Part shown: piece after piece, positions 1,135-55,697 of the stretch
Layout of the letters: each line of letters starts with the position of its first letter
Numbering within the stretch: position 1 is the first letter of the stretch
From: an uncultured virus (IMG/VR IMGVR_UViG_3300011215_000019)
Lineage: Duplodnaviria > Heunggongvirae > Uroviricota > Caudoviricetes
DNA length: 64,000 nt
IMG/VR virus record: IMGVR_UViG_3300011215_000019
Location: 1-64,000 of that record
Direction: 5' to 3' (one strand)
Notes under the pieces: generated by a model
Databases searched by the model: none
Seen by the model: only the letters and a program-made list of their open reading frames with translations
What the model was told of the DNA's origin: nothing
Program-made: the position numbers and the translations under genes

Positions 1135-1273
1135 GGCTAACTGCCTCACTCTAATTCCGCATGTTTTCGCCCAAGGATGCTCTCGGTATCTACTCAATTC
1201 TATGTGGTAAACAGAACGCCCGCGAGCAGGCTCGCGCGAGAGGTACAGCACCTCCAACCCGATTCCGGGCAGC

Positions 1274-1304
1274 AAAAGGCCCCGGAACCGAAGTTCCGGG
1301 GCCG
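1274..1304 (-). terminator. Intrinsic terminator downstream of the displaced ssrA 3' end
   Basis: GGCCCCGGAAC-loop-GTTCCGGGGCC with a T-run on the minus strand. Confidence 0.8.
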
Positions 1305-1305
1305 T

Positions 1306-1328
1306 TGGTGGAGATGGGGAGAATTGAA
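1306..1328 (-). other. ssrA: att core = 3' end fragment of tmRNA (ssrA)
   Basis: Minus strand TTCAATT-CTCCC-CATCTCC-A-CCA: T-loop, T-stem, acceptor 3' strand with U70 (Ala identity) and CCA; 22 bp repeated at 47492-47513. Confidence 0.85.
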
Positions 1329-1364
1329 CTGCCCTATAGGCCGTTTTTGCCCCATGCGCTCACT

Positions 1365-1440
1365 CTAGGATCGCCGGAATCATGCGGTTTTTGCCTAGGT
1401 TGACTCTAGGTCGTTCTAGGCTTTGATGCTTTAAGCATCA
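1365..1440. repeat. Left att arm: phased CTAGG repeats and TTAAGCATCA sites (likely Int/Xis binding)
   Basis: CTAGG at 1395, 1406, 1416; TGATGCTTTAAGCATCA 1424-1440; matching motifs at 47383-47445. Confidence 0.7.
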
Positions 1441-1475
1441 TAGCAATCTGCCCTTGTAGGGTCACCTCACCGTAT

Positions 1476-1504
1476 TTGCAATGTCCTAATTTAGGGCATA
1501 TACT
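1476..1504 (+). promoter_or_regulatory. SigA-type promoter with palindromic operator in the spacer
   Basis: TTGCAA-17 bp-TATACT; spacer TGTCCTAATTTAGGGCA is a near-perfect inverted repeat. Confidence 0.8.
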
Positions 1505-1511
1505 GAATTCA

Positions 1512-1550
1512 CAAGCAAGGGCAAACAGCCCAGCTCGAACCCAAAAGGGG
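1512..1550 (+). promoter_or_regulatory. Double stem-loop 5' leader, copy 1
   Basis: CAAGCAAGGGC-AAACA-GCCCAGCT-CGAA-CCC-AAAA-GGGG; second copy at 1775-1813. Confidence 0.7.
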
Positions 1551-1555
1551 AAACA

Positions 1556-1732
1556 ATGAACGCCACACAGGAACGCAAGCCAGTCACCATGACCGCCGAG
1601 ACGCTTGCAGCCCGAGCATTCAAGTACGTTGCTCTTCAGCACCCATTCGCCAGCAATCGCGAGCTGAAGGAAATCGCTGGCAAGTACATGCGCCGAATGA
1701 TCGAAACCGGCATGATCATTATCGAAGGCTAG
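1556..1732 (+). CDS. Small unknown protein, 58 aa (not in ORF track); candidate anti-defence protein
   Basis: MNATQERKPVTMTAETLAARAFKYVALQHPFASNRELKEIAGKYMRRMIETGMIIIEG*; AAGGGG RBS; first gene after promoter. Confidence 0.75.
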   Translation: MNATQERKPVTMTAETLAARAFKYVALQHPFASNRELKEIAGKYMRRMIETGMIIIEG

Positions 1733-1774
1733 CCGGCCCGGCGGGGCGCAAGCCCCGCCCAATCAACCAAAAAT

Positions 1775-1813
1775 CAAGCATGGGTCATCGAACCTAGCTT
1801 CAACCCAAAGGGG
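1775..1813 (+). promoter_or_regulatory. Double stem-loop 5' leader, copy 2
   Basis: CAAGCATGGGT-CATCGA-ACCTAGCT-TCAA-CCC-AAA-GGGG. Confidence 0.7.
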
Positions 1814-1820
1814 TAATATC

Positions 1821-2096
1821 ATGGCTTCGAAAGCCACCGCCGAAAAATGGCTGAAGGATCTTGCAGAACTCGCAGCAACGAACGGCTGGCAACAGCTCGA
1901 TGAAATCAAAACTGTGATTCAGTCGCAAGCGATTAGTTTTGTGCGCGAGCCCCTTGGTGTTCGGGAATCCGTCACCTTGTTGACTTACTACAATTGGAGC
2001 ACAGGACAGGTGCAGCGATCTGCTTTCACCACAACCCGAAATAGCAATAGGGACATTACTCTGCGAGACGTTCCCAGGTTGCTTACATTCAAGTAA
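1821..2096 (+). CDS. Small unknown protein, 91 aa; candidate anti-defence protein
   Basis: ORF with AAGGGG RBS inside the repeated leader. Confidence 0.75.
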   Translation: MASKATAEKWLKDLAELAATNGWQQLDEIKTVIQSQAISFVREPLGVRESVTLLTYYNWSTGQVQRSAFTTTRNSNRDITLRDVPRLLTFK

Positions 2097-2105
2097 GGCC
2101 GCTCA

Positions 2106-2426
2106 ATGAACCAAACTGAATTTTCCGCTATCCGTCGATTGGTTGGCCTAACCGCTGAACAATTCGGCGACAAGCTTAGTATCAACCCGCGCACTGTTCG
2201 TCGTTGGGAGTCGGGTGCAACGATTATTTCGGATAGTGCCGCCGCGCTGATCCAGGACTTGCGCGCTACGCATGACCTCGATTTTGAGTCGTGTCTTGCG
2301 ATCGCTGGTCGGGGTGATATTGTCACGTTCCCCGAGGGTGACGGCGACCGGCCGAATAGTTGGTGGCTTGCCGTGGCAGCTCGAATCATCGACCGCATAC
2401 CCGACGCCCGCTTAGCATGGGCCTAA
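2106..2426 (+). CDS. XRE HTH protein, Aca2/YdiL (DUF1870)-like
   Basis: HTH IRRLVGLTAEQFGDKLSINPRTVRRWESG; C-terminal NSWWLAVAAR. Confidence 0.75.
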   Translation: MNQTEFSAIRRLVGLTAEQFGDKLSINPRTVRRWESGATIISDSAAALIQDLRATHDLDFESCLAIAGRGDIVTFPEGDGDRPNSWWLAVAARIIDRIPDARLAWA

Positions 2427-2478
2427 GTGTCCCCCCGTTGCCCGTAGACTCTTTTTAGACAAATTGGAGGAAAAGCCA

Positions 2479-2994
2479 GTGAAGAAAACTATTGCCACTG
2501 CCGCCGTGCTGGCTGCTCTCGCGCTTACCGGGTGCACTTCGGGTAATCAGTCAGCTACGCCGGAACCGACCGCCACTGCCACGCCCAGCGCGTCGGAAGC
2601 TGTATCTGCGCCTGCATCTGCATCTGCATCTGCATCTGCAAGCGAATCGGTCAAGGCTAGCGCTTCGAATGCCGCCAAGCCGGACGCTGGCCAGGTGTGG
2701 GCTGACAAGATGATCAACCTGTTCTTGAATGGCAACAGCAAGTCAAAATTTGCTGACTTCAACGATGAATTGCCACACCACTACATCACCGAGTGGGGTC
2801 AGGACTCCGAAGGCGTTTTGAAGGTCACTGTCAAAGGTTCGAAATGGTCCGAGGATGACCTCAGCCTCCTTGGCCGAACCATCATGAGCACGGCCGGCGA
2901 AGAAACTGAATCTTTGACTCGTGTCGTGGTTGTTGATGACATCAAGAGCACCAAGGGCGAAGCGACTCGCGCAGATATTGGTGACTGGAATTAA
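2479..2994 (+). CDS. Lipoprotein moron
   Basis: GTG start after GGAGG; signal peptide with lipobox LTGC; Ala/Ser/Pro linker. Confidence 0.8.
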   Translation: MKKTIATAAVLAALALTGCTSGNQSATPEPTATATPSASEAVSAPASASASASASESVKASASNAAKPDAGQVWADKMINLFLNGNSKSKFADFNDELPHHYITEWGQDSEGVLKVTVKGSKWSEDDLSLLGRTIMSTAGEETESLTRVVVVDDIKSTKGEATRADIGDWN

Positions 2995-3036
2995 AAGAAA
3001 AAAATGCCCGCGCACTCGAAAGTGCGCGGGCATTTT
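2994..3036. terminator. Bidirectional terminator
   Basis: AAAAATGCCCGCGCAC-tcgaaa-GTGCGCGGGCATTTTT between convergent genes. Confidence 0.85.
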
Positions 3037-3044
3037 TGGCTCTG

Positions 3045-3446
3045 TTACTTGTTGCGGCGGTCGTTCAGGTAGTTCTGCCAGGCGAGGGTGAGGTAGTAAT
3101 CCGGGAAGGTCGACGGGCCGTTGGTGCGGCCGTAGTAGATCTTGTTACCGGTGTAGACGTTCCCTCCGTCTGCCGACAGGAACGAACAGGCAGCAGAAAT
3201 GGTCATCCCCTTGACCAGTCCGTCAATGGCGCCTGTGTACTTTCCGGCGTAGCGGCCCTTGTCGCGAAGGTAGCGCTGCCACGCCTTGATAGTCGCCGGG
3301 CCAAACTTTCCGTCCAACAGGTAGGCGGTGGTGTAGTGGCCGGTCTTCCGGAGCTCCACCTGCAAGGCGTGAGTGGTTTCCGAATACTTGGTCGCGCTGG
3401 CGTTCCAAACGGCGTCTTCCTTGATTGCTGTCGATGGGTATGCCAT
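3045..3446 (-). CDS. Stand-alone peptidoglycan-binding-like protein
   Basis: DGKFGPATIKAWQRYL and YTGAIDG motifs resembling the endolysin repeats; no catalytic domain seen. Confidence 0.65.
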   Translation of the reverse strand: MAYPSTAIKEDAVWNASATKYSETTHALQVELRKTGHYTTAYLLDGKFGPATIKAWQRYLRDKGRYAGKYTGAIDGLVKGMTISAACSFLSADGGNVYTGNKIYYGRTNGPSTFPDYYLTLAWQNYLNDRRNK

Positions 3447-30971: not shown

Positions 30972-31258
30972 GGTGCAACGTCTGCAACGAGTGCATAGTC
31001 GTTCTTCCGGGCAGTTGGTTCGACTGCGCGAGTTAGCGATTCGAAGAGTTGGCCAATTGCGGTGCCGATGGATGCAACCGCTTCGACCATGCCTTCGAAT
31101 GCAGCGCGTATTTGCCGGGCTTGCCATGCGATCGGGTTCAACTTTCGTCGACTCGTTTCGACTTGCAGCATGGCGTTTCGCATGTAGAGTTGCGCGAGGT
31201 TCGGTTGCCCGGTGCTTAGCGCGTGACGTGCTCGACTGATCAGTTCATCGGTTGTCAT
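30968..31258 (-). CDS. Hypothetical phage protein
   Basis: MTTDELISRAR, GAAAGG RBS. Confidence 0.6.
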   Translation of the reverse strand: MTTDELISRARHALSTGQPNLAQLYMRNAMLQVETSRRKLNPIAWQARQIRAAFEGMVEAVASIGTAIGQLFESLTRAVEPTARKNDYALVADVAP

Positions 31259-31498
31259 GGTGTTGCCCTTTCCGAATGCCTTCATTGAATGCTTCGGCGA
31301 GGTCGACTTTCCTCATGGCGTAGATCAGGTGTAGCGAAGGACTATGAAGGATGCTGCCGGGGCGTGGCCTGATCCCTGCTCGGTAAGTGATTTGGCGTAG
31401 CCAGGCGACGACTCTCATTGCTGCGTTTTGAGGTTTCAACGGGTTTCCTTTGTTTTGTGGGATACAAGAAAATAACGTTGTATATTCAACTTTTGGTT

Positions 31499-47486: not shown

Positions 47487-47491
47487 TATAG

Positions 47492-47513
47492 GGTGGAGAT
47501 GGGGAGAATTGAA
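47492..47513 (-). other. att core at P1/P2 junction (ssrA 3' fragment)
   Basis: GGTGGAGATGGGGAGAATTGAA identical to 1307-1328. Confidence 0.9.
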
Positions 47514-47590
47514 TTTCCCATATCGCCCTATTGGGCGCATCACCTAAAGCTGGCTTCCGCTAGATCTCGCGGATCTTACTTGACCTACCT

Positions 47591-55014: not shown

Positions 55015-55323
55015 ATGGCATTACAACTGAAGTTCCGTAAGAAACCAGTGACCATCGAAGCGCAGCATTGGGACGGCAAGCCTGAATCGGCAACCCTGAT
55101 TATCAATTGGATCCTATCGAACGGCGGGTCGGCCCACTTTGCCTGCTCACAGCCGGACTCTGGGCCTTGCAAGCCTGAGAAGCCTCACACGATAGCAATC
55201 TCCACGTTAGAAGGCTCAATGCACGCGAGCCCTGGCGACTGGATCATTCGTGGTGTGCAGGGCGAGTTCTACCCGTGCAAGCCGGACATCTTCGAGGCTA
55301 CTTACGAGTCAGCCAACGAGTAA
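55015..55323 (+). CDS. Conserved phage protein
   Basis: KFRKKPVTIEA...GEFYPCKPDIFEATYE. Confidence 0.8.
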   Translation: MALQLKFRKKPVTIEAQHWDGKPESATLIINWILSNGGSAHFACSQPDSGPCKPEKPHTIAISTLEGSMHASPGDWIIRGVQGEFYPCKPDIFEATYESANE

Positions 55324-55430
55324 CACCTAAGCCCCATCATCGGGGCTTTTTTCATGCACCAAACACGGGGCTGGTTTCACATCTTGGGGGTGAGGAACCA
55401 GTCCCAAACCACAACCAAAGGACACACATC

Positions 55431-55697
55431 TTGAACGCGATCACCGTACACACCACCACCAACTGCCAGCAGTGCCGAGCCACCAAACGAAAGCTCGACC
55501 AAGCAGGCATCCAATACAACACCATCGACGTATCCCAGCAGGAATACTCCGACCTCGCAGACGCAATCCGGGCACGCGCCGACGAACTGGGCACCGCACC
55601 GATCATGCCCTACGTGACCATCTACGACCCACACAACAAACTCATCTCCGAATGGTTCGGATTCAACCCAACCAAGATCAACGAGGCGGTGAACTAA
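55431..55697 (+). CDS. NrdH-like glutaredoxin
   Basis: TTG start; CQQC; close paralog of 38528-38797. Confidence 0.8.
   Translation: MNAITVHTTTNCQQCRATKRKLDQAGIQYNTIDVSQQEYSDLADAIRARADELGTAPIMPYVTIYDPHNKLISEWFGFNPTKINEAVN

Follow-up and report, generated by a model that had tools for sequence, protein, structure and literature searches.

Aca2 is a dimeric helix-turn-helix (HTH) protein that binds two hairpins in the 5'-untranslated region (5' UTR) of an mRNA and blocks the ribosome site and translation, and the part of the literature drawn on here defines two Aca2 RNA motifs, a proteo-motif and an actino-motif (Feussner et al., NAR 2026, PMC13551039). In the Aca2 operons described in that part of the paper, a DNA motif overlaps the promoter, the transcription start point is located downstream of this motif by 10-15 nt, an RNA motif follows directly after the start point, and RNA motifs also occur between adjacent genes inside operons. 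The binding of Aca2 to tandem stem-loops over the ribosome site, which an initial annotation of the DNA studied here had taken as known, is stated there as well (PMC13551039). Here we analyze a 64-kb window (positions 1 to 64,000 of the IMG/VR record IMGVR_UViG_3300011215_000019, an uncultured Caudoviricetes provirus of 89,486 bases) in which two small genes upstream of a gene for an HTH protein are each headed by a leader of two hairpins (units 1 and 2, with hairpins H1 and H2). The observation of a duplicated two-hairpin leader is confirmed, and we consider it probable that the two units are copies of a structured 5' leader that accompanies Aca2-type regulators in phages and prophages of actinobacteria.

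The window and the Aca2 of Pectobacterium phage ZF40 (Birkholz et al., Nature 2024, as reported in the part of PMC13551039 used here) are alike in that an HTH protein of the Aca2/YdiL fold is encoded last in the operon, behind small variable genes, and in that an inverted repeat in the promoter is followed, right after the start, by two 5'-UTR hairpins that involve the ribosome site. They differ in that the window protein has only ∼20% identity to solved Aca2 chains and falls just under the Pfam cut-off, that the host is actinobacterial, and that the upstream genes are not known anti-CRISPRs.

Unit 1 (1510-1555, + strand), defined by its fold and by covariance models, is the whole 5' UTR of the first small gene (gene 1, 1556-1732). 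Its H1 (1514-1535, AGC-AA-GGGC-AAACA-GCCC-A-GCT) has a 3-bp outer stem, an AA/A internal loop, a 4-bp inner stem and the loop AAACA, and its H2 (1540-1549, CCC-AAAA-GGG) is accompanied by the Shine-Dalgarno run GGGG at 1547-1550. Unit 2 (1773-1820, + strand), defined by its fold and its likeness to unit 1, is intergenic and promoterless and precedes the second small gene (gene 2, 1821-2096); its H1 (1776-1800) is AAGC-A-UGGGU-CAUCGA-ACCUA-GCUU and its H2 (1803-1814) is ACCC-AAAG-GGGU, with the Shine-Dalgarno run GGGG at 1810-1813. In both units H1 is a two-tier bulged hairpin and H2 a short hairpin with the ribosome site within it, as the initial annotation had said of the second hairpin: the GGGG forms the 3' arm of H2, and no other purine run is placed as a Shine-Dalgarno sequence would be, its distance to the ATG being 5 nt in unit 1 and 7 nt in unit 2. 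The sequences quoted in that annotation for 1512-1550 and 1775-1813 are present exactly as written.

In a global alignment, 1512-1550 and 1775-1813 are identical in 30 of 40 columns. The local alignment score of unit 1 against unit 2 is 27, a value reached by 2 of 2000 dinucleotide shuffles (13.8 +/- 2.4), and the best of 367 control stretches upstream of other open reading frames (ORFs) of the window scored 21 against unit 1 and 23 against unit 2. This likeness is confined to the region from the presumed start point to the start codon, and the coding sequences downstream are unrelated. A degenerate H1 pattern occurs at these two sites only in the 64 kb (0 expected, 100 shuffles), and RNAfold gives both units the common two-hairpin fold at -13.3 kcal/mol each, with z-scores for units 1 and 2 of -2.5 and -1.8 as computed by the tool and of -2.9 and -2.8 against 300 shuffles of the leaders without ATG. 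The stems had been said to be kept through C-G to U-A and G-C to G-U changes, and among the four inner H1 pairs each of these does occur once between the units, the first altering both sides of the pair and the second only one; an A-to-U change in unit 2 additionally closes the internal loop. Taken alone, the unit-to-unit comparison is a single compensatory event and thin, so the claim of covariation stands because of the relatives described below and not on this pair by itself. Rfam gave no match in the window at the gathering score and, within 1300-2600, two chance-level rows at E <= 10.

Unit 1 is preceded by a σ70-type promoter (1476-1504, + strand) that consists of a -35 box TTGCAA (1476-1481), a 17-nt spacer and a -10 box TATACT (1499-1504). 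In a consensus scan of 1200-3100 this was the sole + strand site, listed in two overlapping registers, and no promoter-like site was found upstream of unit 2. The predicted (unmapped) transcript start is at ∼1510-1512; unit 1 begins ∼6 nt past the promoter end, and H1 lies 10 nt past the end of the -10 box. The spacer between the -35 and -10 boxes is filled by an inverted repeat, ATGTCCTAA-T-TTAGGGCAT (1481-1499), in which 8 of 9 arm positions are complementary and which, by analogy with the Aca2 operons, is presumed to be the DNA operator of the HTH protein. No second copy of this repeat was found in the 64-kb window at <=3 mismatches, and the DNA pattern of the promoter and start region was unmatched in viral contigs.

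The HTH protein, the presumed regulator of the operon by the same analogy, has 106 amino acids and is encoded at 2106-2426 (+ strand), starting 10 nt after gene 2 with no leader of its own; it is the sole Aca2-like gene in the window. Its product matches Pfam HTH_3 at 2e-6 and Aca2_YdiL (PF08965) at 23.6 bits, with residues 1-57 alone matched and a cut-off of 23.8. When an AlphaFold2 model of the product (pLDDT 95.9) was compared with known structures by Foldseek, ranks 1-10 were taken by Aca2 (7ezy, 7b5j, 7vjp, 7vjo, and 7vjq), YdiL (1s4k) and SO3848 (2ox6), with TMq values of 0.68-0.74 over 114-133 columns, that is, over the whole length, and E-values of only 1e-3 to 2e-2 (best match: TMq 0.74 over 118 columns). 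HTH-only proteins ranked below these three. The fold of the whole protein comprises an N-terminal HTH and an Aca2-type C-terminal dimerization part, and these top ten PDB matches assign the Aca2 fold to the HTH protein named in the initial annotation. Among 20 HTH proteins scanned, from the window and 19 related loci, 5 pass the Aca2_YdiL cut-off and 14 match at E <= 0.01; the five that pass, all from loci with the common leader, score 27.6-38.7 bits over nearly the full profile.

Close relatives of the HTH protein are rare (9 clusters); the protein alone found no relative among viral contigs, and a metagenome scan with the alignment A1 found none. Loci, labeled with L-numbers (L011 is phage Typha), were gathered with the profiles A1 and A2 from species genomes, a family, an order, IMG/VR and cultured phages. 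Matches were present in 5 of 401 genomes of the family of a Microbacterium match and in 26 of 401 genomes of its order, IMG/VR contributed 26 loci, and the cultured phages contributed Min1 and Typha-like phages. After duplicates and loci without upstream DNA were dropped (L009 and L047 lack upstream DNA, L012 and L017 equal L001, and L044 equals L024), 28 loci including the window encode a full-length relative; partial HTH matches outside this count are L002-L008, L030, L032-L039, L041, L042, L049, L051, L052, and L054-L072. The recurring order in these loci is a promoter, mostly with an inverted repeat in its spacer, a bulged H1, a variable H2, a small gene, a GC-rich hairpin and the HTH gene. 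The promoter of the relatives is placed identically relative to the leader, and H1 starts a few nucleotides past the -10 box, its commonest form being GGUC-A-GGGG-AACAG-CCCC-A-GACC. In an inverted-repeat search of 18 promoters the top repeat lay within the spacer in most, and it lay outside the spacer in L016, L020, L025, L026, L040b, and L046.

A covariance model built from 18 seed leaders, both window units included (R2), recognized 24 leaders at E <= 0.002, and these are spread over 19 of the 28 loci that have a full-length relative, Min1 and Typha among them; units 1 and 2, which are both seeds, scored 40.3 and 30.1 bits. Six of the matches were not seeds, of which Typha has two, L040 three, and L031 one, and in every case the match stops on the start codon of another gene belonging to that locus. 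A model of 22 leaders from which the window was excluded (R3) scored unit 1 at 23.1 bits (E 7e-5), its top match in the 64-kb window.

The covariation of H1 was assessed on a 24-row alignment of these leaders. The fraction of H1 cells that are paired is 76.3%, compared with 64.1 +/- 1.8 in shuffles, none of 500 of which reach it, and register errors of MAFFT make this fraction if anything too low, while the comparison leans towards structure. The H1 covariation score is 0.199, compared with 0.083 in shuffles (0 of 500 reach it), and slid controls for H1 gave at most 58% paired cells and a covariation of 0.091. The MAFFT alignments A3, A4, A5, and A9 were rejected: they placed the arms of the window-type H1 one column off and left H2 unalignable. 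Since H2 is unalignable by column, each fold was parsed singly and no column pair counts were made for it.

Each of the 24 leaders forms two hairpins, no more and no fewer; z averages -2.85 and is below -2 in 20 of them, L014, L046, and two L040 copies being the rest. In H1 an A/A or AA/A internal loop is conserved, as is, in most copies, a loop that ends in AG. H2 keeps its site, 0-9 nt before the start codon, while its stem changes: at least a dozen different stems occur, including CCC/GGG, CGACU/AGUCG, GUCC/GGAC, CGGC/GCCG, GAGC/GCUC, CGGA/UCCG, and CGAUC/GAUCG, and in three L040 copies H2 is down to 2 pairs. A purine run lies in the H2 loop or 3' arm, 0-9 nt before the start codon, in the 22 copies from outside the window, and H2 holds or abuts the ribosome site in all copies. 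The proposal of a covarying two-hairpin leader is thus borne out by covariation of H1 in the relatives and by an H2 whose position is kept and whose stems change.

Leader copies in front of further genes recur in L040, in Typha, and in L031, which has one extra copy. L040 has four copies (425-472, 750-797, 1861-1906, and 2222-2266), and Typha has copies at 828-883 and 3224-3273 at E <= 0.002 and weaker ones at 1202-1239 and 1919-1967. In L040 and Typha the leaders lie on both sides of the HTH gene, with a small gene's start codon at the end of every copy, the small genes of Typha being annotated genes 46 and 51. In these two loci one regulator may control a whole block of small genes.

The small gene behind the leader differs between loci, with unrelated sequences. 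One acidic family of ∼65-75 amino acids with the core ...EFDIDAIADEV... stands behind the leader in six loci (L014, 1238-1453; L018, 1169-1375; and the small genes of L016, L026, L027, and L031), and is a recurrent cargo of these operons; the L014 and L018 genes match PHROG 27679, a family of no known function.

These features can be set beside the published actino-motif. As far as that motif is described in the part of the paper used here (PMC13551039), it and the window leader are alike in that an RNA motif stands upstream of an aca2 operon in Actinobacteria, and in that a DNA motif lies in the promoter, the RNA motif after the start, and copies of it between genes of the operon. Because five leader-bearing HTH relatives pass the Aca2_YdiL cut-off, the leader family is likely the actino-motif, compared by description, with the window as a divergent member that has a second, inner copy. 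The H1 of the window (AGC-AA-GGGC) departs from the commonest H1 of the relatives (GGUC-A-GGGG), and it is conceivable, if unlikely, that the window-type leader is not the published actino-motif but a subclass that has yet to be described. Such a subclass could be set apart by four features: the H1 build AGC-AA-GGGN, common to Min1, L001, and L031; an H2 that "slides", so that the Shine-Dalgarno run falls in the 3' arm or in the loop depending on the copy; a conserved GC-rich hairpin by which the proportion of cargo protein to regulator is set; and a portable translational-operator cassette whose ends are exchange points for orphan cargo genes. A further described element, the 5'-UTR hairpin of Aca1, is built like H1: it is a bulged hairpin directly behind the start point, its lower stem is conserved, its upper stem covaries, and it has unpaired bases; it differs in being a single hairpin that ends ∼20 nt before the start codon and in belonging to another protein family, and no translational silencing was seen with it, according to the part of that paper used here (PMC13551039).

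The reading of both units as leaders of an Aca2-type regulator has to be weighed against several results, given in this and the next three paragraphs. The loci were collected through the HTH protein, and the association of motif and protein is therefore partly one of ascertainment. Nine of the 28 loci (L013, L015, L019, L021, L022, L023, L028, L029, and L043) have no R2 match at E <= 0.002, although the leader of L013 is similar by eye. H1 pairs with a two-sided change number 4 of 8, a count that 77 of 500 shuffles reach, and the alignment A8 was fitted to the structure, with 18 of its 24 rows being seeds. The window protein lies 0.2 bits under the Pfam Aca2_YdiL cut-off.

Unit 2 is the weaker of the two copies in every model. 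A model of 7 regular leaders with the window left out (R1) found L026 at E 4e-6 and unit 1 with a score of 19 bits and an E of 0.068 over 265 kb but missed unit 2, and it was dropped as too narrow on account of both window results; R3 gives unit 2 only a partial match, out of register, at 13.5 bits (E 0.074). Together with the lower R2 score and with an H1 loop (CAUCGA) that lacks the A-rich ...AG of most copies, these matches could mean that unit 2 is a decaying, functionless leftover of a duplication or cassette insertion, and that unit 1 alone works as an operator. This is highly improbable. Both hairpins of unit 2 are intact, and one pair of its H1 was kept by a two-sided change. In contigs of four sequencing runs, relatives ∼99% and ∼95% identical keep both units, and the stems of unit 2 are unchanged among the differences listed (26 others are unlisted). 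Inner copies, moreover, recur in other loci and in the published operons, as described in the part of the paper used here (PMC13551039).

The specificity of R2 is a further point of this kind. Over 151 genomes of the order, R2 gave 14 matches in 11 genomes; four, at 31-51 bits, are known HTH-linked leaders, and ten, at 26-31 bits, lie before ordinary genes, with no HTH relative within 1.5 kb of any of them. Because of these ten, R2 is unspecific below ∼32 bits, and because unit 2 scores 30.1 bits, what supports its assignment is its resemblance to unit 1 and where it lies in the operon. We read the ten matches as terminator-plus-ribosome-site look-alikes and not as true leaders, with the possible exception of L089 (G503:C16), where a hairpin GGUCCGGGA-ACAAG-UCCCGGACC and a ribosome site at 1501-1543 of the oriented locus stand behind a TTGACG box and before a 69-amino acid low-complexity ORF, with no Aca2-like gene within 1.5 kb; it may be an orphan copy regulated in trans, or a look-alike. 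Such arrangements of a hairpin and a ribosome site before ordinary genes, with no HTH gene nearby, are also what would be expected if the leader worked without the HTH protein, with H1 as a 5' stabilizer against 5'-end-dependent decay, H2 as a brake on ribosome binding, and the whole mainly a junction at which cargo is swapped. In favor of this, different loci have unrelated genes following the leader, and an abundant contig of run X1 matches 1485-1561 only and diverges 5 nt into gene 1, which is weak evidence (likeness under 95, short sides). We regard this explanation as quite unlikely: every strong match (31-54 bits) falls in an operon that includes an Aca2-like gene, the leader is accompanied by promoter operators, and neither the internal loop (A/A or AA/A) nor the AG-ending loop of H1 is needed for simple stability. 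It is also compatible with protein binding rather than exclusive of it. T4-type phages offer a comparison in the promoter early stem-loop (PeSL) element, a repeated stem-loop that heads small variable phage genes and coincides with swap points; each PeSL copy has its own promoter, and the elements are interpreted as sites of recombination. The window differs from this arrangement in that unit 2 is promoterless, the element holds the ribosome site, and there is a dedicated regulator.

The pairing itself gives the last of these points. Of 293 predicted pairs only 4 are G-U, and neither strand has the better fold overall, the sense strand being ahead in 12 of the 24 leaders and the antisense strand in 12, so thermodynamics does not separate RNA structure from a DNA palindrome. 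H1 is near-palindromic as DNA too, and it could be that H1 acts as DNA, as a second palindromic operator for the HTH dimer downstream of the start of unit 1, with the RNA fold as a by-product; the second inverted repeat of ZF40 Aca2 is said to be used at both levels. We hold this to be very unlikely. Unit 2 and the inner copies of L040 and Typha have no promoter to block, all copies are oriented with the gene at a fixed distance to its start codon, and the asymmetric internal loop is conserved on one strand, which a symmetric dimer site would not keep. H1 is also unlike the promoter inverted repeat of its own locus, and H2, which is not palindromic with H1, is conserved alongside it. A function as RNA rather than DNA is thus favored by the fixed orientation and distance, the strand-specific internal loop, the ribosome site in H2 and the promoterless copies.

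Weighed in this way, the reading as Aca2-type leaders is the one that we prefer, and the interpretation of the initial annotation, that each gene has its own translational operator, is supported, with binding and repression by this particular protein suggested by analogy. From the arrangement of the operon we infer a transcript start, RNA and DNA binding, translational repression, a role for the GC-rich hairpin and a function of the small genes along the following lines. The single promoter at 1476-1504, with the operator repeat in its spacer, would drive the operon, and the transcript would begin at ∼1510 and open with H1, after which H2 would occlude the ribosome site of gene 1. The GC-rich hairpin after gene 1 most likely lowers or stabilizes transcription without ending it, and the second leader copy would head gene 2, with the regulator gene directly behind. 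The dimeric 2106-2426 product, by analogy with ZF40 Aca2, would bind the DNA operator and shut off transcription, and it would also bind H1 and H2 on the mRNA and block ribosome entry on gene 1 and gene 2 separately. Synthesis of both orphan proteins would then be brief, a short burst followed by silencing.

The GC-rich hairpin, GGCGGGGC-GCAA-GCCCCGCC (1740-1759, + strand), lies directly 3' of gene 1; a hairpin with a GCAA tetraloop had been noted between the units, and it is there, with 8 G-C-rich pairs. Its tail, CAATCAACC, holds no U tract, and the hairpin was rejected as an intrinsic terminator, as it lacks a U tract and was not called by a scan that does call the two-way terminator at 3000-3037. 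We presume that it is an attenuator or a 3'-end stabilizer. An equivalent strong hairpin stands behind the small gene and ahead of the HTH gene in L001, L013, L014, L016, L018, L020, L024, L025, L027, L045, L048, and L050, and likewise in Min1, so that at least 13 loci have a GC-rich hairpin ahead of the Aca2-like gene, in many cases one that has a tetraloop and lacks a U tract (L001, 2957-2980, and L010, about 2428-2465, give examples of its position); the window differs in that the hairpin stands after gene 1 and not immediately before the HTH gene. It looks like a conserved within-operon attenuator or 3'-end stabilizer and could set the ratio of cargo protein to regulator.

Genes 1 and 2, both on the + strand in the ORF list, encode orphan proteins of 58 and 91 amino acids with no Pfam or PHROG family. 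Gene 1 has one protein cluster only, at 95% identity, among 5.8 billion, gene 2 likewise has one cluster at 95% identity, and scans of viral contigs with the 91- and 58-amino acid proteins singly found no relative. Third codon positions account for 7 of the 11 differences in gene 2 among those listed for the ∼95% relative. Pfam and PHROG scans, as opposed to a search against an anti-CRISPR library, which was not made, found no known anti-CRISPR in either gene, which weakens the name Aca for the regulator and leaves its assignment to the fold family unaffected. By analogy with other operons of this kind, the two proteins are candidate anti-defense factors.

The operon is short, on the + strand, and at a prophage end, in the order promoter, unit 1, gene 1, GC-rich hairpin, unit 2, gene 2, HTH gene, lipoprotein gene and terminator. 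The 24 nt at 1306-1329, which have a CCA end, are found again at 47491-47514 with 2 mismatches, and the two copies are probably the attachment-site repeat pair of a prophage of ∼46 kb. The repeat resembles a tRNA 3' end (…TCCACCA); ARAGORN and Rfam called no tRNA or transfer-messenger RNA (tmRNA) at either copy, and a tmRNA-like row of 12.7 bits was recorded at 1300-1422. Host-like genes, namely crcB-like frames and a DUF2568 membrane protein gene, lie to the left of 1306-1329. In a blastn search of 1300-3050 against phages, just 88 nt near the attachment site matched. The lipoprotein gene that follows the HTH gene (2464-2994, + strand) encodes a signal peptide together with a lipobox (LTGC) and a linker rich in Ala/Ser; its product matches PHROG families weakly, one of them a Cor-type superinfection-exclusion family (E 0.003), and one contig has a 12-nt length variant at 2612, in the repeat-coding part of the gene.

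Elsewhere in the window, the weak R2 and R3 matches at 61022-63, 31256-31317, and 38795-849 were judged to be ribosome-site look-alikes. A weak third leader match lies at 55383-55433 (+ strand; R2 19 bits, R3 16.5 bits), after a terminator at ∼55333-55356, and ends on a TTG in frame with the ORF 55275-55697. It is outside 1306-47514, in a run of small + strand genes at 54-62 kb that resembles another phage early region, with no operator-like repeat and no Aca2-like gene nearby; it may be a ribosome-site look-alike too.

The principle of an HTH regulator that binds a promoter and two leader hairpins, with copies between genes, is already in print in the part of the literature used here (PMC13551039), and what is gained from the present locus is annotation and material rather than a new principle. 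The 58- and 91-amino acid orphans are flagged as candidate anti-defense genes that would be under burst-then-silence control, and flagging such genes is the usual use of guilt by association with Aca-type regulators. The 19 loci, which include the cultured phages Min1 (Microbacterium) and Typha (Mycobacterium smegmatis), provide material for tests of Aca2-type RNA binding outside Proteobacteria.

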